Origin: a virus | Lineage: Duplodnaviria; Caudoviricetes | IMG/VR virus record: IMGVR_UViG_3300045282_000227 | Location: 2,013 to 66,012 of that record | Strand: one strand, 5' to 3' | DNA: 64,000 nucleotides | Shown: positions 2,056 through 51,588 of the stretch, piece by piece | How positions within the stretch are numbered: the first letter of the stretch is position 1 | Layout of the letters: each line of letters starts with the position of its first letter | The notes under the pieces: generated by a model | Databases searched by the model: none | What the model saw: only the letters and a program-made list of their open reading frames with translations | What the model was told of the DNA's origin: nothing | Translations under genes and position numbers: made by a program

Positions 2056-3489
2056 ATGAACCAGATTCTCAGCACTGACAGTTACAAGTTCTCCCATTTC
2101 ATGCAGTATCCACCGGGAACGACAGACGTCTCGAGTTACATCGAGGCCCGTGGAACCAAGTTACCGAACGTCAAGGAGCTCGTCTTCCTTGGACTTCAGA
2201 GTTACATCAAAGACCGTCTCATGAAGCCGGTCACCATGGCCGATGTACGTGAAGCCGAAACATTCTGTTCCAAACACGGAGTTCCATTCAATGTCGAAGG
2301 TTGGACGACCATCGTTCGAGATCATGGCGGATTTCTTCCGATCAAGATCACTGCAGTACCAGAGGGCACGGTTGTTCCACTTGGAAATATGCTTGTACAA
2401 GTTCACACTCTGGACGAGCGCTTGCCTTGGTTGACCAGCTATGTCGAGACGGACATCTTGCGTTACGTCTGGTATCCGAGCACAGTCGGAACTGTGAGCC
2501 GCGAGATCAAGAAGATCATCAAGGCTGGCCTCGATGTGAGCTCAGACATTCCAGATGTCGTCCTTCCGTTCAAGTTGCATGACTTCGGCTACCGAGGCGT
2601 CTCGAGCACCGAATCGGCTGCACGTGGTGGCTTTGCGCATCTCGTGAACTTCCTCGGGACCGACACCGTCGCTGGCATCGAACATGCGATTGAGTTCTAT
2701 GACGCAGATGTCTGTGCATATTCGATCAGTGCTTCCGAGCATAGCACGATGACCTCGTGGGGTCAGGATTACGAATACGAAGCCTACGCGAACATGGTGA
2801 AGCAGTATGCCAAGAAGGGCGCCATTTTCGCGTGTGTCATTGACAGTTACGACACATTGAACGCCATAGACCTCTGGACACTGCCGCAACGGGGCCAGAA
2901 GAGCCTGACCGATCAAGTCAAGGAAGCCGGTGCAACGGTCGTCCTGCGTCCCGACTCTGGTCATCCGGTTGACATGCCGGTTCTGGTCGTGGACACTTTG
3001 CTGCGGCGCTTGAGGAAGGAAGGCAAAGTCAACGAGAAGGGCTTCGCGGTTCTCCCAGATCATGTTCGTGTCATCCAGGGCGACGGCATCGACATGCACG
3101 ACGTCAAGAACATTCTCGACAAACTAATCGCCGCAAAGAACAGTACCGAAAACATCGGCTTCGGCATGGGTGGTGGTCTGCTCCAGAAGTGCGACCGCGA
3201 CACATTCAAGTTCGCAATGAAGTGCAACGCGATCGAGATCGACGGTGAATGGCGTGCAGTATTCAAGGATCCGATCACCGACAAGGGCAAGGCTTCCAAG
3301 CGCGGACGCCAGGTTCTCCTGCGCCACAAGGAGACGAAGGAGTTCGTGACCGTGCGTGTCGAGTTGGGTGCTGATCTACGACTCGGTGGTTGGATCTCTG
3401 CAACCGAAGTGATGTTCAGTTCATATGCCGGGACAGTGAGGACCAATTTCACGACACTTGACAAGATTCGTGAAAGGGCGGCACTCTAA
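2056..3489 (+). CDS. nadV: Nicotinamide phosphoribosyltransferase
   Basis: TDSYKFSH, LHDFGYRG, SISASEHS, VLRPDSG, IQGDG, GFGMGGGLLQ, KDPITDKGKASKRG motifs. Confidence 0.97.
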   Translation: MNQILSTDSYKFSHFMQYPPGTTDVSSYIEARGTKLPNVKELVFLGLQSYIKDRLMKPVTMADVREAETFCSKHGVPFNVEGWTTIVRDHGGFLPIKITAVPEGTVVPLGNMLVQVHTLDERLPWLTSYVETDILRYVWYPSTVGTVSREIKKIIKAGLDVSSDIPDVVLPFKLHDFGYRGVSSTESAARGGFAHLVNFLGTDTVAGIEHAIEFYDADVCAYSISASEHSTMTSWGQDYEYEAYANMVKQYAKKGAIFACVIDSYDTLNAIDLWTLPQRGQKSLTDQVKEAGATVVLRPDSGHPVDMPVLVVDTLLRRLRKEGKVNEKGFAVLPDHVRVIQGDGIDMHDVKNILDKLIAAKNSTENIGFGMGGGLLQKCDRDTFKFAMKCNAIEIDGEWRAVFKDPITDKGKASKRGRQVLLRHKETKEFVTVRVELGADLRLGGWISATEVMFSSYAGTVRTNFTTLDKIRERAAL

Positions 3490-3498
3490 ATACTAGAC

Positions 3499-3572
3499 GC
3501 TCTGTTAGTATAGTGGTAGTACAGGTGTTTCGTAAGCACTTGGCGTAGGTTCGATTCCTACACGGAGCTCCA
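3499..3572 (+). tRNA. tRNA-Thr(CGT)
   Basis: Cloverleaf: acceptor GCTCTGT/ACGGAGC, anticodon arm GGTGT-TTCGTAA-GCACT, T arm GTAGG-TTCGATT-CCTAC, encoded CCA; TAAATA late-type box at 3487-3492. Confidence 0.93.
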
Positions 3573-8816: not shown

Positions 8817-9797
8817 ATGGGCGGTAACCTATTCAAAGAGGCAGAACGCATCCCAGCGGATCTCTACGAGGTCATCGTCGCTGGTGTCCACTGGAATCCG
8901 TGGGCATACATTCCGGCTTCTGTTGACGAGAAGGAATCGTTCGGCGACGTTGACATCCTCGTCGATGCGTCGGGTCCTGATCAGTTCGCTGAAGTGGTGA
9001 ACGCGTTCCTCGCCAAAGAGAAGGTTCTTGCTCCCATCGAAAAGGACAACCAGTCCTGGCATGCGCTGGTCGACTGTGCAGGCGTCAAATGTCAGTTCGA
9101 CTTCATCAAACACTTCGATAGCGATACACTCAATTTCGCGATCGGCTACTTCTCATACAACGACCTTGGCAACCTGATCGGTCGCATTGCTCACCGTCAA
9201 GGCTTCAAGTTCGGTCACGATGGTCTCTGGTGGACCTACCGAGACGGCGACCTGTTGGTCCAAGACATCAAGCTCACCAATGATTATGACGAGGCCACCA
9301 ATTTCCTAGGCTTCGGTCGTGTTCCGATCGAGGGATTCGCGACATTCGACGAGATGTTCGAATGGGTTCGTAGTTGCTCTCGCTTTGAATACAGCGCATT
9401 CCCGCTCGAGCACCGAAATCATCGTTCAAGAGTTCGTGATGCCAAGCGAAAGACATACAATATGTTTCTCGATTGGCTGTCGACTCGCTACAACCTACTC
9501 GACTACCATGAATCCGACAAGGACTATCAAGGTCGTCGTCTAAAGGAAGCATTCGTTCGTTGGCCCAAGGCACGAGACGAATTCCAGACAGCTTTCAACA
9601 AGCACACCGAGGATCAACACTTCAAGACGAAGTTCAACGGCGACATCGTCCGCGAGATCACTGGCCAAGAAGGCAAGGCTCTCGGTCTGGTCTGCCAGAG
9701 AATGAAGCAGACTCTTTCGAGAGATTGGATCCTGAAGGCCCCACAGGCAGACATCAACCAAGCGATTGCGGCTCTGTTCGTCGCATTCAAAATCTGA
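8817..9797 (+). CDS. Putative Pol-beta-superfamily nucleotidyltransferase
   Basis: SFGDVDILV (DxD) plus QFDFI third acidic residue; C-terminal NGDIVREITG..GKALG resembles CCA-enzyme tail. Confidence 0.65.
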   Translation: MGGNLFKEAERIPADLYEVIVAGVHWNPWAYIPASVDEKESFGDVDILVDASGPDQFAEVVNAFLAKEKVLAPIEKDNQSWHALVDCAGVKCQFDFIKHFDSDTLNFAIGYFSYNDLGNLIGRIAHRQGFKFGHDGLWWTYRDGDLLVQDIKLTNDYDEATNFLGFGRVPIEGFATFDEMFEWVRSCSRFEYSAFPLEHRNHRSRVRDAKRKTYNMFLDWLSTRYNLLDYHESDKDYQGRRLKEAFVRWPKARDEFQTAFNKHTEDQHFKTKFNGDIVREITGQEGKALGLVCQRMKQTLSRDWILKAPQADINQAIAALFVAFKI

Positions 9798-9806
9798 GGA
9801 TTCATT

Positions 9807-10274
9807 ATGTCATCCGGAACCATTGGACTCAAGCTCAACTATCTACGCAAGATTACTGACATTGCACTCGCTCGTCGTGCGCTTTTCGTTTCCCTAGAGA
9901 AGGCAAGACTGAAAGTTCTGGCAGCCGATAGGATGGTAGAAGCTGCCAAGAAGAATGACAAGATGTCGTGGTGGACGAAGCTTTTCTTCGATCCCGATTG
10001 GATTCCAACATTCGAAGAAGTCGACAAAGAACTCGAGAATTTCGTTGAGTTGGACAAGAAACTGTGTTGGGGTTCTCGCTGGGGAATGTACTTCGAGACG
10101 AAAGATCTACGAGGACTGAAGCGTGGTCATCAATACATCGGTGACATCGCTCGCCTGAGAGATACTCTGACCCATGTGCGAGAAGACACATCATGGGAAA
10201 GCGACAAGTCTGAATTCGTCGACGTCGATCTCGAACTGCTCAACCAGATCTACTACTGGAGATTCCATACATGA
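9807..10274 (+). CDS. Hypothetical protein
   Basis: GAGGA RBS; operon-filling ORF. Confidence 0.65.
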   Translation: MSSGTIGLKLNYLRKITDIALARRALFVSLEKARLKVLAADRMVEAAKKNDKMSWWTKLFFDPDWIPTFEEVDKELENFVELDKKLCWGSRWGMYFETKDLRGLKRGHQYIGDIARLRDTLTHVREDTSWESDKSEFVDVDLELLNQIYYWRFHT

Positions 10275-10822
10275 AAGATTTCACGCCGACCAAAGAAACG
10301 ATCAGCCTCCACGGACTTGGGTTCATCCAGCTCGTCCTTGGCGGCAACCAGCGGATGCATGTCTGGCACCCTGATCTACCTCGGCGTGATTGCTATCTCG
10401 ACTCGGCCGTCCATAATCACCGATTCAGTTTCAATTCCAGAGTTCTGAAGGGCACACAAGTCAATCAGCGCTGTGATCTCGAGATCGTGAAGCCTGGTAC
10501 AGGGACACATGTTCTCATCAGCCACAACGGTCCACGGTCGGACAAGGGTGGACGTCTTAGCTATCCGGTTGCCGATGTCAATGTCACGATGCGAGAGATC
10601 GAGTACTATGAACCTGGTGAAGAGTACTACATGCCGGCGATGGAATACCACCACACACCCTGCAACGGCATCGTCGTAACGCTCATGCAGAAAGTCGAAG
10701 AGACCAAGCTTCACGCGAACAGCGTTTGCAAGCAAGGCACAGTATTCCACTATGACTTCGATCGCTTCCAGCTGTCACCGGAAAAGCTGTTCGGGTACGT
10801 GGTCGAAGCACTTCAATCGTAG
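10271..10822 (+). CDS. Cupin-fold (cysteine dioxygenase-like) hypothetical protein
   Basis: VHNHRFSFNSRVLKG and YYMPAMEYHHT metal-binding His pattern. Confidence 0.55.
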   Translation: MKDFTPTKETISLHGLGFIQLVLGGNQRMHVWHPDLPRRDCYLDSAVHNHRFSFNSRVLKGTQVNQRCDLEIVKPGTGTHVLISHNGPRSDKGGRLSYPVADVNVTMREIEYYEPGEEYYMPAMEYHHTPCNGIVVTLMQKVEETKLHANSVCKQGTVFHYDFDRFQLSPEKLFGYVVEALQS

Positions 10823-10831
10823 GAGAAAGAG

Positions 10832-11011
10832 ATGGGACTTTTCAAGAGCTTGACCAAGGCAGTCGTGGGTGTGGTTGTCGCAACGCCAGTGGCATTGGTG
10901 GCAGACGCAATCACGATGGGTGGCGCCATGAATGATCGTCGTGAACCATACACGGCCACGGCACTCAAGAATGTGGTGAAGAATGTCGAAAAGGCCACCA
11001 AATCCGACTGA
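10832..11011 (+). CDS. Small conserved phage protein (59 aa, not in ORF track)
   Basis: AGGAG RBS; MGLFKSLTKAVVGVVVATPVALVADAITMGG... Confidence 0.75.
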   Translation: MGLFKSLTKAVVGVVVATPVALVADAITMGGAMNDRREPYTATALKNVVKNVEKATKSD

Positions 11012-11017
11012 AATCGC

Positions 11018-11046
11018 TTGACTCCATTCATGAAACATTATATCAT
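11018..11046 (+). promoter_or_regulatory. sigma70-type early promoter
   Basis: TTGACT-17-TATCAT; ATG 7 nt downstream. Confidence 0.75.
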
Positions 11047-11052
11047 CTGTGA

Positions 11053-11388
11053 ATGGAAAAGCATACCGCAATCATAGCAAAGAGCCGACTTCGAAGCATC
11101 ATCTTCCGAGATCGCCTTGTATCCAGACTGAGTGAGACACTACAAGGGCAGGCCGCTCTTCTAGTGTCTCACGCTTACAATGCGCCCAATCTGATAGCCG
11201 AACAGCTACTCAGTGTCCAGCCAATGACAGCAGAGACGACCCAGATATTCAAAATCAGATACGTCGAACGCCGTTGGTGGAAGCGCGTCTGGAATTGGTT
11301 GCGGAAACTGAAGAGGAAATCTTTTCCGAGGAATGAACTCGACGTCGCTTTTGACCATGTCGAAAACATCATAAGGAACTCGAAGTGA
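11053..11388 (+). CDS. Small protein containing a gp23 (major capsid) Gol-like segment
   Basis: PNLIAEQLLSVQPMTAETTQIFKIRY. Confidence 0.65.
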   Translation: MEKHTAIIAKSRLRSIIFRDRLVSRLSETLQGQAALLVSHAYNAPNLIAEQLLSVQPMTAETTQIFKIRYVERRWWKRVWNWLRKLKRKSFPRNELDVAFDHVENIIRNSK

Positions 11389-11939
11389 CAAGCCCACGAA
11401 TTTGGTTCACATCTGACCAGCACTTTGGTCATGCGAACATCATGAAGTACTACCCGGGTCGCGAAAGCCTCGGCACGGTCGAAGCCGTCGATCAGACAAT
11501 GATCACACAGTGGAACCGAGTGGTTGGCTATTCCGACCTCGTGTATGTCATCGGTGATATTGCGATGGGTGGCAATGTTGAGAAGACGATGGGAATCTAC
11601 CAGCGTCTCAATGGCACGAAGATCTTGGTGACAGGCAATCACGACAACAAGATGCTACGCAACCCGAAGTTCTTTGAACTCTTCAAGGAAGTGCATCTCA
11701 CCTATCACGAGCGTGTGATCAATGGTCAGCTGATCGTGATGTGTCATTTCCCGATCTGGGAGTGGCACCAGATACACCGAAACTCTTGGCACCTGCATGG
11801 TCACCTGCACGGCAAGCCGCACGGCATTCCGGGCAAGATACTGGATGTCAGCGCCGACGGTCACGATCTCACTCCATGGAGCTTCGAAGATGTCAAGCGA
11901 TACATGGATAAGCGCGAATTGCGCACACATCACACTTGA
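11385..11939 (+). CDS. Metallophosphoesterase
   Basis: FTSDQHFGH, IGDI, GNHD, CHFP, HGHLH. Confidence 0.92.
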   Translation: MTSPRIWFTSDQHFGHANIMKYYPGRESLGTVEAVDQTMITQWNRVVGYSDLVYVIGDIAMGGNVEKTMGIYQRLNGTKILVTGNHDNKMLRNPKFFELFKEVHLTYHERVINGQLIVMCHFPIWEWHQIHRNSWHLHGHLHGKPHGIPGKILDVSADGHDLTPWSFEDVKRYMDKRELRTHHT

Positions 11940-11964
11940 CATTGGATGAGATTCATTATATCAT
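11936..11964 (+). promoter_or_regulatory. sigma70-type early promoter
   Basis: TTGACA-17-TATCAT. Confidence 0.8.
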
Positions 11965-11989
11965 TCATGTACGATAAGAGGAGTTCTTA

Positions 11990-12875
11990 GTGGCCAAGAT
12001 TACCATCAGGACCGATGCCTTTTTCATAGAGCGCATCGCGAAATGTCTCAGGAAGATCGTTGCCATCCGAGAAGCCAAGTGGGATGATGCAAAGGTCAGG
12101 TATGTTCGTGAGTACAACCAGCGGCGCCTGGTTCGGTGGGGTTTCAAGCCCACCATTGACATGTTCGACGCCGCGCTGCTTCTTGGGCGCAACGGTCGCT
12201 ATCACTCGATGCCCGAAGGCCCTGGCTGGTACAACCCAAGCACTCGTGAGCGTTGCAACGTTCACAAAGAACACTATGAAACACTTCTTCGGATTGGACA
12301 GGCGGCCGCGTTGTCTCCCTATCCTGTCAAGATGGTTCTTGACGCAGAAGAAGCTGCCGTGATTGACTACTGGGAAAAGCAATGAAGACGCATGTTCTGG
12401 CACCCATCGAACCGACCAAAGAGATGCTCCAGGCGGCCTACGACACACAAAATCAATTCTTGAAAAACCTCGTCATTTACTATGAGGGCAATCGAGAACC
12501 ACAACCTGATCTTTGCACCATGATCTACAAGGCAATGCTTTCGAAAGTCAAGGAACCGAAATGAATCTCGAAACGAAACACTTGGTTCTGATGAATGCCG
12601 TCGTGGCTCGCACGACTCTGAGCACCATGCACGATGCTCGTGAATTCTCCAAGACCGACTCGACCCTGAAAGCCCTCCGTGAAGCAGGGCACGCCATCGA
12701 CATCTACGACGTCGGCCGTCATCGCTTTGCCAAGTTCTACTTCGGCGACCAGGCGATCGAAGTCCATGTTGGTCCGAAGCCCGATCGTCCGAAGATCGGT
12801 GCGCCGGATGCAGGTCCAGAATCTCCGGATCCGGGCACCCCGGGTACGACCATCCCAACGGCCCTCGCGGCCTAA
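11990..12875 (+). CDS. Three coupled hypothetical proteins (11990-12385, 12382-12564, 12561-12875)
   Basis: RBS and ATGA overlaps. Confidence 0.65.
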
Positions 12876-12889
12876 CTCGAGAGATCAAA

Positions 12890-13264
12890 ATGAAACGTGA
12901 AACTCTTCGCAAGAAAGAACGCTTGAACAAACTGGCCGACCATCTCGAAAATTCTGTTCTCGACAAGGAATACAATCACGGCTCGTATTGTGGCAAGAAC
13001 TTGTGCCGGACGACTCATTGCGCTCTAGGTCATGCGGCGGCAACCAAAGGGAAATTCCCGGGCCTGCAACTCGATTTCGATCAATTCGGCGTCCTGATCA
13101 ATCTGACCGGAAGCTGGTGCGACGAGGACATCGAAGCTGATCGATACTTCGGCGACAAAGCATACAGGACCATTTTCGGCGGTGGTGCGTTCAAGTCGTA
13201 TAAACCGAAGCGCAAGACGGTTATCAAGCGCATCCGCCAGTTCAGCAATTCACTCCAGGACTAA
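12890..13264 (+). CDS. Hypothetical protein, paralog A
   Basis: YNHGSY...HCALG...FPGLQL...DRYFG...KTVIKRIRQF. Confidence 0.75.
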   Translation: MKRETLRKKERLNKLADHLENSVLDKEYNHGSYCGKNLCRTTHCALGHAAATKGKFPGLQLDFDQFGVLINLTGSWCDEDIEADRYFGDKAYRTIFGGGAFKSYKPKRKTVIKRIRQFSNSLQD

Positions 13265-13409
13265 GACATGCTCAACTCAATCTTCATCTTCGTCCTGCGA
13301 TTGACTCGCAAGGAAGTGTCAGACGGAAACTTCTGCATGGTACTGGCAGAGCTCGTGGCGACCGTGGTAATCGTCGCTATCATCCGCAACACGCACTGAG
13401 GAGAACGAA

Positions 13410-13805
13410 ATGTTCACTCGCGAAAACGAACGTCAGTACTTGCGCCTCGATAAACTCGTGGAAGCCCTGCGCGGCCTTGGTCCTGATCATTACTACCACG
13501 GAGCCTATGTGTATAAAGGCTTTGGTGCAAAGGCCGGACACATGCAGTATTGTGCACTTGGCTTGGCTGTCACTCTCAAAGACATCTTCCCGGGTTTGCA
13601 CCTACAGTTCAGTGGATACAATATCGTTCTTGCTCCTGGATACGAACACCTATCAGTGCGTTTTGTCACTGACAAGTACTTTGGCCGCAGAGCGAACCAA
13701 TACATCTTCAGAAATGGTTGTTTGTCGTCATACAAAGGCACCCCGAACCTGAAGACAGTCATTCGCCACATCAGAACCTTTCAGAAGAAAATGCTACGCG
13801 CATGA
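13410..13805 (+). CDS. Hypothetical protein, paralog B
   Basis: YYHGAY...YCALG...FPGLHL...DKYFG...KTVIRHIRTF. Confidence 0.75.
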   Translation: MFTRENERQYLRLDKLVEALRGLGPDHYYHGAYVYKGFGAKAGHMQYCALGLAVTLKDIFPGLHLQFSGYNIVLAPGYEHLSVRFVTDKYFGRRANQYIFRNGCLSSYKGTPNLKTVIRHIRTFQKKMLRA

Positions 13806-14063: not shown

Positions 14064-14969
14064 ATGACAAAGGAAGCGATTCTGACAATTGGTGTTTCGG
14101 CTTCGGGTAAGTCTACCTGGGCGTTCAATGAACAATCTCGACAACGCGCTCTCGGTCAGGAATGTGTGACAATCGAACGCGATCGATTTCGCCGCGCCAT
14201 CTATGTCAACAAGAACATGGGTGAACAGTTCAAGTGGAATTTTTGGAACTGGAAGTGGGAGAACGAAGTCAACGAATTGCAAGATGCTGCCCTGAAAGAG
14301 GTCATCCGGGCCGGCGCCAATGTTATCATCTCCGACACGAACCTGAATCCCAAGACTCGCGAGGCTCTGACCAAGCGTCTCGAAGATGCTGGTTTTGTCG
14401 TCAAGCACCAAGTGTTCGATATCTCTTTCGAAGACGCCGTCAAGCGCGACATCAACCGAGACTATCCGGTTGGTGCTTTCGTGATTGCCAAGCAGATGCA
14501 GCAGTTCCAGGAACAGTTCGGCGAGAAGCTCGTCGTGATGGATCCGACACTCCCGAAGGCGGCGATCGTCGACATCGACGGCACCGTGGCCCTGATGAAT
14601 GGCCGCAAGCCATACGACTGGATGCGAGTGATCGAAGACCTGCCGCATGAGCCGGTTGTCGACATGGTCCACGGTCTGGCTGCAGGTGGCCACAAGATCC
14701 TGTTCACTTCGGGTCGCGATAGCGTCTGCCGCTTGGCCACCGAGACCTGGCTGAACACGGTGTTCGGCAGCATCGACTTCCACTTGTTCATGCGTCCAGC
14801 AGACGACATGCGCAAGGATTCGATCATCAAGCGTGAGCTGTTCGAAGAGCACATCGAACCGTTCTACAATGTCAAGGTTGTCCTAGACGATCGTCCACAG
14901 GTCACCGATTTGTGGCGCTCGATGGGACTGAACGTCGTACAAATCGGCAACCCATACGTGAGGTTCTAA
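14064..14969 (+). CDS. pseT: Polynucleotide 5'-kinase / 3'-phosphatase
   Basis: P-loop GVSASGKST, SDTNLN; HAD DIDGT, SGR, MRPADDMRKD, DDR. Confidence 0.93.
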   Translation: MTKEAILTIGVSASGKSTWAFNEQSRQRALGQECVTIERDRFRRAIYVNKNMGEQFKWNFWNWKWENEVNELQDAALKEVIRAGANVIISDTNLNPKTREALTKRLEDAGFVVKHQVFDISFEDAVKRDINRDYPVGAFVIAKQMQQFQEQFGEKLVVMDPTLPKAAIVDIDGTVALMNGRKPYDWMRVIEDLPHEPVVDMVHGLAAGGHKILFTSGRDSVCRLATETWLNTVFGSIDFHLFMRPADDMRKDSIIKRELFEEHIEPFYNVKVVLDDRPQVTDLWRSMGLNVVQIGNPYVRF

Positions 14970-44348: not shown

Positions 44349-44935
44349 ATAGATATGATCAATTAGCATATACATATCTTATAGGATGGCCCTCTTTGAG
44401 GAAGTGGTACTATGGGTACAGATGTGCTAATCGTAAATCTCCAGAAGAAGATTTCTGGATTGAATATTTTACATCTTCGCCTTTGGTGAAGCAATTCATA
44501 GAATTCTATGGTCAACCTGAATTCAAAGAAATCGACCAGACTTTTCCGAATGGTAATGAAGCTCATCAACACGAAATTCAAACATTGATGAAGTTGAATG
44601 CCGGCAAATCGAATCAGTTTCTTAATCAGTATGTTTGGGTAAGTGGTGGGCAGATGAGCGATGCAACTCGTGCAAAAATGTCAGCATCTCATACAGGAAA
44701 ATCGCACCCACAGAAAAAGAAACCACCATTCTCTCTAACGCACAGACAGAATCTTTCATTATCGAAAACGGGGATTAAGAATACACTCTTTGGAAAATCC
44801 CTCAGTCTGGAAAGACGTAAACAGATGTCCGAGACGCGTAAAGGTGTGAACAATTCTTTCTTTGGAAAGCACCACAATGACGAAACCAAAAGAAAGATTT
44901 CAGAAACCAAGAGATTGAGAAAACAACATGCATAA
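44345..44935 (+). mobile_element. Free-standing homing endonuclease (GIY-YIG-like + NUMOD3 repeats)
   Basis: YTYLIGW..WYYGYR..YFTSS; KMS.SH.GK, FFGKHHNDETKRKISE; AT-richer than flanks. Confidence 0.85.
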
Positions 44936-46918: not shown

Positions 46919-48748
46919 ATGCCTGGCTATAAAGAAACTGTCCAATCACTCAATCCCGTCTTCTTCCTGACGTTCGACGGCGATTCTGTCAATCCGACGA
47001 CTCATACATTCAACTCCGGCGATCTGATCGACGAGTCGGGCTACTCTGCCCCGACAATGATAATGAATGAAGACCCGGCGCATCCTGCCTATCGTGCAGG
47101 AATTCAGTCGTTGGTCAATCTCGAACCAGCCGGACAGTATGCAACCTCATTCGGTTGGTACGGCTATCAGCCAGCAGCAACCACTCGTTGGCCACAAGCG
47201 TTCGTTCAGGTCACTCACCAAGCCCAACACCACTTCGACGCAAACAATGGATCGTTCACGGTCTCATTGATGTTCGATAAAGAGGTCACCGACTCAGCCT
47301 GGCGTTCGGTTGAATTCAATCTTGCTGGTAACTGGACAGCTACCAGAATCAGCCCGATGATCCGCAAGGGTTCGTCGTTCAGAATATTCTTGTATGAACC
47401 CTATGGAAGTCCGACCGGTGTCATCCGTGTGGTGCTCCCGAATGGCACGAACATGGATTGGGGTCTCCCAGGTTGGTTCTACAACCGTCGCAACCATATC
47501 ACGTTCACCTGGAATGTCTACCAGACGCTCGAGGGAACCTGGATCATGGAAGCCACTCTGTATGTCAATGGACATGTCAGAGCTACACAGACATTCACTG
47601 ACGTCGATGACTATGTCAACTCGTCTTCAACCGACAATATCGAAATCGCAGGAACAAGTGAGACGACCGATTCGGCCTTCAGTAACCGTTGTGTCTCGAA
47701 TGTCGAGTTTGACCAGATCTTCATCATCGATCGTGCCTTGACGGCAGACGAGAACGCTCGCCTATACAGAAAGACGATGTTGTATCGCGATATCGTCCTA
47801 GCAGCTCAGCCGGCATTCTTCTATCCGATGGGCGATGCCCAGACGTCACTCGACTTCACAATGTCGAATGCCATCCCGGGTGGTCTGAATGGTCTCTACC
47901 AAGGTGGCCTCGGCAAGCTCACTCGTGAACAGCCAGGCCCGACGATTCCGATTGGCAGCTCTTCGACAGACTTCCACGGCGGAACGGCTGTCGTTCACGC
48001 CTATAACAACTGCGGTGGCGAGTCGACCATCTTCAACCCAGGCGGCGACTACACGGTCGAGACCTGGTTCAAGATTTCTACGGCCGATCGCTCGATTCTG
48101 TTCTCGTCACAGTCTGATGACCTTCCATGGAACGGCATCCTGGTCGAGATGAATCGCCGAAACAATCTGTTCCAGTCTGGCATGATTCAATTCTCGATCA
48201 ATTCAGACTACCAGGTGAGCACTCGAGTCCTCACAGACACCGGTGGCCTGTACAACTTCACCGACAATCTCTGGCACTACTTGACATTGGTTAGAAAGGC
48301 AAACAAGATCTATATCTGGGTCGATGCCGTTCTGCACACTGTGATCGACGCGCCACTCGTCTCAACCGGTCTGCCTGGTCAGTTCTTCTTCATGGGAATG
48401 ATGCCAGGCAATCTAAACACGTTCGGATTCTTGAGCAACTTTGTCATCTACAACTATGCCCTGGACGACGCCGAGATTCGGATGCGCAACACCTATTCGA
48501 GCATCTATCGTATTCAAGGCAATGTCACGCTGCAGGGCAATCCGTATGGTGCGACAATCAGACTATACAATCACAGGACTGGTCAGCTTGCCCAAGAGAC
48601 AGCAAGCAACCCAGATTCAGGTTACTACAATGCCTTGCTCTATGACAATTCACTGATTGATTTGGTCGCGATGAACAAGCAAGACGCCAATGTGCGCTAT
48701 CGAGTCTATGGACCGTTGGTGCCTGGATTTTACGAGGATCTACCCTAA
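46919..48748 (+). CDS. LamG/concanavalin-A-like domain virion protein
   Basis: Two LamG-like halves (YTVETWFK, WHYLTLVR..IWVD, IYNYAL). Confidence 0.75.
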   Translation: MPGYKETVQSLNPVFFLTFDGDSVNPTTHTFNSGDLIDESGYSAPTMIMNEDPAHPAYRAGIQSLVNLEPAGQYATSFGWYGYQPAATTRWPQAFVQVTHQAQHHFDANNGSFTVSLMFDKEVTDSAWRSVEFNLAGNWTATRISPMIRKGSSFRIFLYEPYGSPTGVIRVVLPNGTNMDWGLPGWFYNRRNHITFTWNVYQTLEGTWIMEATLYVNGHVRATQTFTDVDDYVNSSSTDNIEIAGTSETTDSAFSNRCVSNVEFDQIFIIDRALTADENARLYRKTMLYRDIVLAAQPAFFYPMGDAQTSLDFTMSNAIPGGLNGLYQGGLGKLTREQPGPTIPIGSSSTDFHGGTAVVHAYNNCGGESTIFNPGGDYTVETWFKISTADRSILFSSQSDDLPWNGILVEMNRRNNLFQSGMIQFSINSDYQVSTRVLTDTGGLYNFTDNLWHYLTLVRKANKIYIWVDAVLHTVIDAPLVSTGLPGQFFFMGMMPGNLNTFGFLSNFVIYNYALDDAEIRMRNTYSSIYRIQGNVTLQGNPYGATIRLYNHRTGQLAQETASNPDSGYYNALLYDNSLIDLVAMNKQDANVRYRVYGPLVPGFYEDLP

Positions 48749-49890: not shown

Positions 49891-51588
49891 GTGACAACAC
49901 AGACAGCAAGATACTGGTGCTTTTGGTTCCGCAATGTCTTCGGCAATGCACTCATCAGTGCCCAAAGTGTCATCAAGGGAATCACTCTCCGCGATGGTAG
50001 TGGTACAGCTATCTCGTATGCTGATGCAAGGGCCTACAGTCCAGAGAATCGCGTAGATTCTGGTTCGGGAACTCGAGCTCTCCTTGACGCCGACAGTTCT
50101 ACATTCTGTGCTTTCTATACAGCGACCGATTACTTTGTTCTGTTCGATTTCGGAACAGCCGTTACAGTTGGCTCCTATGACATCCAAGGTTCGGCGTCTG
50201 TAAAGGAATCGCCGAATCATTGGTTACTGATGTGTCGAAATGATTATCCGTTCGATTGGTCACAGAATTGGACAGAGCTCGGCCTGTTTCAGATTGCGTC
50301 TCCTTGGACGGCCAGTCAAACCAAATCATTCAACCTCTCCGACGCCAATCCACCTTTCGAAGAAGCTGTCTGGGCTCAAGGTGGTCAGACATCTTGGGTT
50401 GCCGATAGCGCTGATATGCTTCTCACGGATTTTGGTGATGCCACAGGTGAAGCAATCTGGCTAGGTCGAACTGGCGATAAGCGTCAGAGCTACTGGGGTG
50501 ACGGAATCATCTCTGGTAGTGTGACAGACAGCAGCGGATTCATCTCCGGTGCCAAGGTCTATCTCGTCGATCCAGCGAACAGGAACCATGTAGCCGAGAC
50601 AACGGCAGACGGCGTTGGCTTCTATCAGTTCTTGAATCTCGATCGTACTTGCCTCTTCGACATCGTTGCACAAGATCCGGCAGGTCTCTGGGAGAAACGC
50701 GTTTCGAGTAGCCGTCGTCCTTGGGCCCAGGCACAGATGGTCATCAATGTCGCCGACGAACCATTCAATGGACAGCGCCCTGGCCAGTTCGGTATACAAC
50801 TGAATTCGAAAGAATCTCCTAAACTGGTTGCTACATTCGGTGTAGGTGAGGACACCTGGACGGCCCTGAATTGTTCTGATCCGTTTTTCAAGTATGTCAC
50901 TGCCTTGATTCGCATTGACGATACAGGTGCCATCTACGACATGTCGAAGACGCAGATGGCACACACCTCAGGAACAGCTGCCGCGTCGAACGTCGTCACA
51001 CCACCAACGGGATTCGGAAACAACTCTTTGAGAATCGGTGTCAGTGGTGACGCCTACAGTTTCTACACATTCAGCAATTTCCCGAATGTCATGGATAGAG
51101 ACTTCACCTGTGAGTACTACCTCTATCCGCTTTCGTCGCCAGGCGCCTCACAAGGTTATCAAATCTGTTTCGATGAGTCGGGTTGGCAGTCTGCCAAGAA
51201 CGGTAACTACCTGTTCTATACTCACCCGAACACATCACCGTCACAGGTGAATTTCCTCACACCACAACAGAATGTATCTTGGATCTATTTGTTCGGCGGA
51301 AACCCTGCCGGTTCTGGTACGGCCAATGCCTTGACTATGGACGCTTGGCAGCATGTCGAGGTGTCAAGACAGAACAATACATACAGAATCTTCATCGACG
51401 GTGTCAAGAAGACCGAACAGAGCTACACCACATACTCAGTCGCCAACGATCTCTATCCCAATGTGTTCATGCTGGGCGTGTACACGTACTCGACGCCATC
51501 CTATATGACTGGTATCAGATTCACTGACGGCATCTGCAGACACACTGCCACTTTCACGCCGCCGACTTTCGCCGAGATGTATCAATGA
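49891..51588 (+). CDS. Virion protein with discoidin-like and LamG-like domains
   Basis: FDFGTAVTV.SY..SP..W; DFTCEY..WQHVEVSR..IFIDG..IRFTDGICRH..FTPPT. Confidence 0.7.
   Translation: MTTQTARYWCFWFRNVFGNALISAQSVIKGITLRDGSGTAISYADARAYSPENRVDSGSGTRALLDADSSTFCAFYTATDYFVLFDFGTAVTVGSYDIQGSASVKESPNHWLLMCRNDYPFDWSQNWTELGLFQIASPWTASQTKSFNLSDANPPFEEAVWAQGGQTSWVADSADMLLTDFGDATGEAIWLGRTGDKRQSYWGDGIISGSVTDSSGFISGAKVYLVDPANRNHVAETTADGVGFYQFLNLDRTCLFDIVAQDPAGLWEKRVSSSRRPWAQAQMVINVADEPFNGQRPGQFGIQLNSKESPKLVATFGVGEDTWTALNCSDPFFKYVTALIRIDDTGAIYDMSKTQMAHTSGTAAASNVVTPPTGFGNNSLRIGVSGDAYSFYTFSNFPNVMDRDFTCEYYLYPLSSPGASQGYQICFDESGWQSAKNGNYLFYTHPNTSPSQVNFLTPQQNVSWIYLFGGNPAGSGTANALTMDAWQHVEVSRQNNTYRIFIDGVKKTEQSYTTYSVANDLYPNVFMLGVYTYSTPSYMTGIRFTDGICRHTATFTPPTFAEMYQ

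Follow-up and report, generated by a model that had tools for sequence, protein, structure and literature searches.

The stretch of DNA analyzed here (the window; 64,000 nucleotides) corresponds to bases 2013-66012 of a 66,012-base IMG/VR record, for which completeness is estimated at 42%. On the plus strand of the window, positions 11053-11388 hold a small gene, taken from the list of open reading frames and accompanied by intact short homologues elsewhere, that encodes a protein of 111 residues (mini-gene and mini-protein hereafter). Nucleotides 11134-11265 (plus strand) encode residues 28-71, a capsid-derived segment, predicted to be flexible, with homology to approximately residues 90-131 of the T4 major capsid protein gp23. 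Nucleotides 11275-11322 (plus strand) encode residues 75-90, a Trp/Arg-rich amphipathic helix with a W-[YW]-K-[RK] motif, which is specific to the family of short proteins described below and has no counterpart in capsid proteins. An earlier note on this DNA had called the product a basic protein of 111 residues, in agreement with its composition: the pI is 10.94, Lys and Arg number 21 against 10 for Asp and Glu, and there are four Trp residues. The mini-protein has no hydrophobic stretch of signal or transmembrane type, since no 18-residue window reaches a mean hydrophobicity above 0.30.

The mini-gene is preceded by a sigma-70-like promoter match (TTGACT-17-TATCAT; 11018-11046, plus strand) that agrees with the consensus at 10 of 12 positions. 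Such sites number 8 in the region 9500-13500, compared to 2.9 ± 1.5 in shuffled sequences. An early promoter had been claimed here; the promoter-like sequence is present, but it is a consensus match only, which does not prove an early promoter. The -10 element ends 6 nt upstream of the mini-gene ATG, such that the mRNA would be leaderless or nearly so, and no Shine-Dalgarno sequence was seen before this ATG. At the other end of the mini-gene, its TGA stop overlaps the GTG start of a calcineurin-type phosphoesterase gene (11385-11939, plus strand; phrog_547, E 1.6e-51), the two forming the sequence GTGA.

The mini-gene belongs to a T4-like phage from soil that has not been cultured; the isolates closest to it are phages of Xanthomonas and Stenotrophomonas. 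The contig carries gp5-, gp6- and gp8-type baseplate genes, a NAMPT gene and a T4-type polynucleotide kinase-phosphatase (PNKP) gene. The gp6 homologue shows 57-59% identity to those of the Xanthomonas phages X1 and BUDD and of Stenotrophomonas phages of the Moby/Mendera group. The stretch is contained in a single public DNA sequencing run, a soil metagenome that may itself be the source, and in no RNA run. The first recognizable structural gene on the contig (gp5-like) begins at 44928, which bears out the statement that the mini-gene lies far from structural genes. The contig does not include the major capsid gene of this phage: searches with Pfam Gp23 and with a profile built from 10 full-length capsid proteins both match the mini-gene open reading frame only. 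The NAMPT gene (NAPRTase E 1e-49, plus NAMPT_N) lies at 2056-3489 and is directly followed by tRNA-Thr(CGT) at 3499-3572; phage NAD-salvage genes have been linked to the countering of NAD-depleting defences. Within the baseplate gene block, two genes (46919-48748 and 49891-51588) encode Laminin_G_3 (concanavalin-like lectin) proteins, which are possibly receptor-binding parts.

By sequence comparison, residues 28-71 of the mini-protein are homologous to the conserved N-terminal segment of T4-type major capsid proteins. Alignment of a 16-member family profile to the 10 full-length capsid proteins with hhalign gave a probability of 98.1% and an E-value of 9.7e-14 over 44 columns, in a match that spans residues 28-71 of the mini-protein and stops at residue 71. 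A six-member family profile, compared to the PDB, matched T4 gp23 at residues 90-131 (E 2.8e-7). Applied to the whole 66-kb record, the profile of 10 capsid proteins matched at one place, the mini-gene open reading frame (E 6.2e-9). With the mini-protein as a single query, BLASTP gave 19 identities over 47 positions (E 5e-7) with the capsid protein of Xanthomonas phage BUDD, the nearest isolate, and PHROG major-head families matched at E 1.1e-4 (phrog_138, "major head protein") and 2.6e-4. A tblastn search of 50,697 phage records returned 1382 records at E<=10 with a best E-value of 0.08, which is weak when taken alone.

The Pfam Gp23 family (PF07068) aligned to residues 44-72 of the mini-protein over profile positions 16-44 of 376, with an E-value of 5.2e-5 and a score of 23.2 bits against a gathering cut-off of 24.4. 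The whole-protein score and a match to the body of the HK97 fold thus do not place the mini-protein within PF07068, as only the N-terminal segment is represented. Extension of the Gp23 match past the TGA stop (profile positions 16-80) added just 1.4 bits and was judged to be noise. The earlier note had proposed a search against gp23 profiles, the lack of a significant match counting against its reading; a significant match was obtained. The peptide that it quoted consists of residues 34-70 (nucleotides 11152-11262), exactly as it had given them, and the T4 gp23 string that it gave occurs unchanged in the aligned part (residues 90-131) of PDB chain 6uzc_a. Inspection of the capsid motif, P-x-L-I-A ... 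VQPM ... F, revealed that P45, A49, V55-Q56-P57-M58 and F66 are present in the mini-protein. The N-terminal side of the segment is worn, lacking both the two basic residues that precede P-N-L-I-A and the Gly that follows VQPM. The homologous stretch in T4 is the Gol, or EF-Tu-binding, region and comprises the N-segment plus the first strand of the P-domain. We take the Gol region of gp23 to be residues ~93-122.

The mini-protein has relatives of its own kind. An exhaustive phmmer search of 1.84 billion representatives returned 6 proteins at E<=0.001, namely the query and five short proteins of 64-135 residues (E 1.2e-8 to 2.9e-4), for which the matches extend beyond the capsid segment to residues 83-86. 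The nearest homologue is 43% identical. A profile search yielded 60 short proteins at E<=0.01 among 1401 candidates; 36 of the 60 were examined in full and the motif windows in all, and some of the weaker ones may be fragments of capsid genes at contig ends. In at least 16 intact short proteins, the capsid segment is followed by the W-[YW]-K-[RK] aromatic-basic stretch, which is not found in capsid proteins. We define this Trp/Arg-helix subgroup as proteins of 64-170 residues in which the W-[YW]-K-[RK] helix begins within about 5 residues after the capsid segment, a definition that takes in the mini-protein. Invariant or near-invariant positions in the alignment of 16 sequences are P45, A49, V55, Q56, P57, M58, I65, F66 and W75. 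The P, L, A, VQPM and F positions are invariant in the 10 full-length capsid proteins and never or hardly vary in the 16 mini-proteins, which suggests that the detached segment is held under the same constraint. Identity at 36 motif positions averages 0.52 for members of the family, 0.59 for capsid proteins and 0.42 when family members are compared to capsid proteins.

Two complete genomes (176,325 bases; 168,076 bases with terminal repeats) encode both a full-length capsid protein and a mini-protein, from genes ~75-77 kb apart. When segments are ranked by identity to the capsid protein of the same phage, those of the two mini-genes come 7th and 20th of 27. Given the coexistence with a full-length capsid gene and the low rank of the two segments, the mini-gene is not a broken capsid gene, and neither is it a recent copy of one. 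Neutral decay among the homologues, which had been named as an outcome that would count against a functional gene, was not seen: the homologues are intact and retain the same invariant positions as real capsid proteins. A word-based protein search for close homologues returned the query only (1 of 5 candidates), and a scan of viral contigs with the mini-protein alone gave 16 pattern hits and 0 relatives. A leaderless family member from a 171-kb contig was not found in the viral contigs and hence provided no third genomic context for the Trp/Arg subgroup. On these sequence relationships, the mini-gene is a real, selected accessory gene and a member of a conserved family. The description of the locus as a stand-alone copy of the Gol segment therefore stands, in that the gene is intact and conserved, lies outside the structural module and contains only the Gol-region segment of a T4-type capsid protein.

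An AlphaFold2 model calculated from the 16-sequence alignment has a mean pLDDT of 71 and a pTM of 0.27, the latter indicating that there is no compact fold. Helices are predicted at residues 2-43, 75-90 and 95-110, with a short helix (49-53) within the capsid segment; coil predominates across residues 44-74, where the pLDDT block means are 61-66. The helix at 75-90 is the best-predicted part of the model (pLDDT block means of 90 and 84), and residues 73-90 have a helical hydrophobic moment of 0.81. In the ESM Atlas, the model of the mini-protein has a pLDDT of 0.41 and gave no usable match. From the modeling, the mini-protein is predicted to be non-globular, with a flexible capsid strip displayed between helices and beside a cationic, Trp-rich amphipathic helix, and is not predicted to be a folded capsid fragment.

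To place the mini-gene in context, we compared its neighborhood with those of its relatives. Downstream of the mini-gene in the window, at a distance of 2.7 kb, is the PNKP gene (14064-14969; HAD_PNKP E 2.4e-46, plus an AAA_33 kinase domain). In the two complete relatives, a homologous phosphoesterase gene, whose product is 29-31% identical to that of the window (E 6e-15 and 2e-18), is located 0.4-0.6 kb upstream of the mini-gene. The order in both is phosphoesterase, tRNA-Gln, tRNA-Phe, tRNA-Gly, mini-gene, tRNA-Pro, in arrays of 28 and 27 tRNA genes, and these tRNA islands also hold a PTH2-like open reading frame (match below the cut-off) and a NADAR gene. A differently built Gol-segment protein of 270 residues is encoded inside an array of 19 tRNA genes. 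No tRNA genes were found within 8 kb at 3 of the 6 other loci examined (L012, L019 and L075), nor at L104 (2.6 kb) or at the Moby locus L086. The linkage of the mini-gene to phosphoesterase, tRNA and RNA-repair genes, which for the phosphoesterase is seen in two independent lineages, is suggestive of a functional connection. Accessory genes are known to accumulate in tRNA arrays and in this region, and shared position, with no functional tie, may account for the linkage. With the phosphoesterase as a single query, the viral contigs gave 29 pattern hits and 0 relatives.

Among the nearest isolates, phages X1 and Moby keep the phosphoesterase gene, and Moby also keeps the downstream PNKP gene. 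There is no mini-gene-like open reading frame beside the phosphoesterase in X1 or Moby, this being the region checked in the two phages, and a tblastn search of the BUDD genome matched the capsid gene as its only place. Thus, the mini-gene appears dispensable for this group of phages. The gene upstream of the mini-gene (10271-10822; phrog_4784) has copies of 72-81% identity on 7 viral contigs that have no other gene in common with the window. It therefore looks like a roaming accessory gene and offers no context for the mini-gene. Further upstream, 8817-9797 encodes a protein of 326 residues that matches phrog_24943 ("DNA polymerase", E 1.8e-37) and no Pfam family; at the same position, Moby encodes a protein of 391 residues that is similar by eye. 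The product of 8817-9797 may be a nucleotidyltransferase of an RNA-repair cluster. Separately, a complete 168-kb T4-like genome (G006) carries a tmRNA gene, with a tag ending in ALAA, at L031:11570-11880 within an array of 27 tRNA genes.

To get a broader picture of detached capsid segments, we inspected additional segment-bearing forms found in viral and metagenome contigs. All 10 proteins examined from other small architectures match the Gp23 profile at positions 1-56 only, 9 of them above the cut-off, and none of the 10 proteins has a second domain above the cut-off. The occurrence of the same segment alone in several unrelated small-protein architectures indicates a portable module. Ten sequences, including the best match of the mini-protein, start with a twin-arginine-type leader (RRxFLK) that is followed by a hydrophobic stretch; in these leader-bearing relatives the Pfam TAT_signal match (E 0.045) is below the cut-off. 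The N-terminus of the mini-protein is a polar, basic helix from which the RRxFLK leader and hydrophobic stretch of this Tat-leader subgroup are absent. A metagenome scan with the alignment of the Tat-leader group gave 19 loci, which were mostly full-length capsid genes and included one genome already in the set and two further architectures. A different conserved block of the capsid protein is also found detached: in giant-phage fragments, an open reading frame of 77 residues corresponds to Gp23 profile positions 147-199 (34 bits). It lies at L106:710-943 (minus strand) in fragment G002, and the same block occurs in G003 and G004; these fragments also encode a Gol-segment protein of 175-190 residues. 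No full-length capsid gene is present on the giant-phage pieces of 152-184 kb. The existence of a mini-gene with another capsid block implies that the wider phenomenon is mimicry of capsid pieces and not specifically docking on EF-Tu. In the literature that we searched, no paper dealt with stand-alone Gol or capsid-fragment genes.

What the strip might bind is suggested by work on T4. As described in PMC3014915, a 29-residue gp23 peptide alone binds domains II-III of EF-Tu, with a preference for the GDP form, and makes EF-Tu cleavable by Lit between Gly59 and Ile60. The same paper describes the Gol region as the most conserved part of gp23, proposes EF-Tu binding in all hosts, and leaves the reason for this strong conservation as an open question (PMC3014915). 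That the mini-protein is a capsid-strip mimic, by descent and by design, is partly supported by our data, its partner being putative. We favor the reading, with a probability of roughly 40%, that the mini-protein is a displayed-peptide mimic that would occupy the partner of the capsid segment, most likely EF-Tu. Since no other partner has been shown to bind the isolated segment, docking on EF-Tu is the most likely mechanism. Produced in isolation from the remaining capsid fold, and probably under an early-type promoter, the strip would occupy the partner that normally grips the segment on new, unassembled capsid protein. The cationic amphipathic helix would add a second contact, to membrane or RNA. 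As a consequence, EF-Tu might be guarded against Lit-type cleavage, or translation might be tuned, and the neighborhood of translation and RNA-repair genes fits EF-Tu as the partner.

A reading specific to EF-Tu is challenged chiefly by two findings, the relatives that bear leaders and the mini-gene built on another capsid block. If the Tat-type leaders of the closest relatives mean export, then their segment cannot meet cytoplasmic EF-Tu. In addition, from a faithful copy of Gol one would expect activation of a Lit-type protease, not inhibition. A stronger form of the EF-Tu reading, which we consider unlikely, is that the Gol-type strip is a portable EF-Tu-docking peptide on mini-proteins of tRNA/RNA-repair islands, and that it would load EF-Tu from the first minutes of infection and make it refractory to suicide proteases, both Lit-type and others. 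If true, this would be the first dedicated EF-Tu guard and would account for the fact that no other part of T4-type capsid proteins is as conserved as the strip.

The segment could instead act on head assembly, by binding the scaffolding core of the prohead or neighboring capsid subunits, and thereby tune the assembly of its own phage or poison that of a co-infecting relative. The structural data on T4, as described in PMC9546572, are in favor: in the unexpanded head, the N-terminal part of gp23 as far as L106 is disordered and faces the interior, where the authors infer contact with the scaffolding core; upon expansion, the N-terminal part becomes the N-arm and N-fist that make contacts between capsomers; and the head-length mutations A94V and G97S fall within the copied segment. 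Mini-genes with other capsid blocks fit a capsid-directed role better than one on EF-Tu, and the finding that the segment is not closest to the capsid protein of its own phage is compatible with the targeting of other phages. However, the mini-gene of the window has a sigma-70-like site, early-type and RNA-repair surroundings and a distance of >30 kb to the nearest recognizable structural gene, while its counterparts in the relatives are found within tRNA arrays, at a distance of ~75-77 kb from the capsid gene. Moreover, the nearest isolates build heads with no copy detectable beside the phosphoesterase, the region checked, or, by tblastn of BUDD, anywhere but in the capsid gene itself, and the export-type leaders of the sister group do not fit assembly in the cytoplasm. 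We therefore regard a role in head assembly as possible but doubtful.

Besides EF-Tu modulation and interference with the capsid assembly of competitors, the earlier note had proposed, as its main idea, an immune decoy or antagonist, which would pre-occupy or blunt an abortive-infection sensor of the capsid strip, for example a Lit-type protease that attacks EF-Tu in complex with Gol. Defence systems are commonly triggered by capsid proteins, as for Lit/Gol, CapRel, Avs7, Avs8 and Avs10, and the copied strip is exactly the Lit-activating region. Furthermore, the gene is accessory and patchy in distribution, as anti-defence genes tend to be, and the window holds other genes of counter-defence type, NAMPT and PNKP. 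A copy with Gol features that is made early would, however, trigger Lit sooner and not pre-empt it. Avs7-like sensors enclose the whole capsid fold, such that a strip of 44 residues would make an unlikely decoy for them. Neither a Lit-like gene nor a host is known for this uncultured phage, and a November 2026 update on phage countermeasures names no capsid-fragment decoy in its passages on the major capsid protein, mimics or decoys. We hold a decoy function to be improbable.

A role directed at the cell envelope, for example in superinfection exclusion or membrane remodeling, would be carried out by the Trp/Arg helix or the export leader, with a structural function left to the strip. The sister group, with its RRxFLK leaders and subsequent hydrophobic stretches, is in line with this, as is the fact that the cationic Trp-rich helix is the best-predicted and most amphipathic element of the mini-protein; cationic Trp-rich amphipathic helices are commonly found at membrane interfaces. 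Such a role leaves unexplained why the invariant positions are identical to those of capsid proteins, the mini-protein itself has no leader or hydrophobic stretch, and the TAT_signal match of its relatives falls under the Pfam cut-off, so that the odds are low here as well. Finally, a decaying remnant of a capsid-gene duplication, or a chance open reading frame with no function, would agree with the weak single-sequence tblastn result (best E 0.08), with the failure of the word-based search and viral-contig scan to find a close homologue and with the Pfam score just under the cut-off, but is largely refuted and very improbable given sixteen intact short homologues with a common non-capsid tail, invariant positions identical to those of capsid proteins, coexistence with a full-length capsid gene in two complete genomes, and a promoter-like site and stop codon that overlaps the start of the next gene.

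Comparison to known systems shows how the mini-protein differs from each. It contains the same stretch of sequence (gp23 90-131, E 2.8e-7) as the Gol/Lit/EF-Tu exclusion system of T4 gp23 and prophage e14. In T4, this segment is part of a capsid protein of 521 residues that is made late, whereas here it is found in a separate, predicted early-type gene product of 111 residues with a Trp/Arg helix that is foreign to capsid proteins. With the Gp23 family (PF07068) the mini-protein has in common the invariant P-x-L-I-A, VQPM and F positions, but it covers 29-44 of the 376 profile positions, scores below the gathering threshold, lacks the rest of the HK97 fold and is predicted to be non-globular. 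The antitoxin-mimic Gp145 of ICP1 (PMC13728456), one of the mimics and binders with which phages blunt the defences of the host, is likewise a small accessory phage protein, and the mini-protein would probably also imitate the binding surface of another molecule. Mimics of the Gp145 type imitate host or nucleic-acid partners, whereas what the mini-protein imitates is a strip from a structural protein of the phage itself.

It has been recognized for decades that no other part of T4-type capsid proteins is as conserved as the Gol region, and that this peptide binds EF-Tu and activates Lit. A natural, selected, stand-alone strip on many small phage proteins makes the question of its conservation testable apart from the rest of the capsid protein. 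Should the partner be EF-Tu, the mini-proteins would represent a new class of phage factors directed at the translation machinery; should it be scaffold or capsid protein, they would be natural interferers with assembly; and should it be a sensor, they would be the first capsid-peptide decoys. The details brought out by this window are the Trp/Arg-helix subgroup and its linkage to the phosphoesterase gene and to tRNA/RNA-repair regions.

Two further observations concern proteins of other build. Open reading frames of 900 and >965 residues (L091, L092 3210-5912; L105 1473-4370) contain the capsid segment far from the N-terminus and may represent an upstream protein fused to a capsid protein. 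Three Gol-segment proteins from different phages (P0048/L018-L021; L012:7995-8327; L104:881-1357) have similar C-terminal domains of ~45 residues, as judged by eye and with no Pfam match; if this common domain is real, it would define a second carrier family for the same capsid strip.
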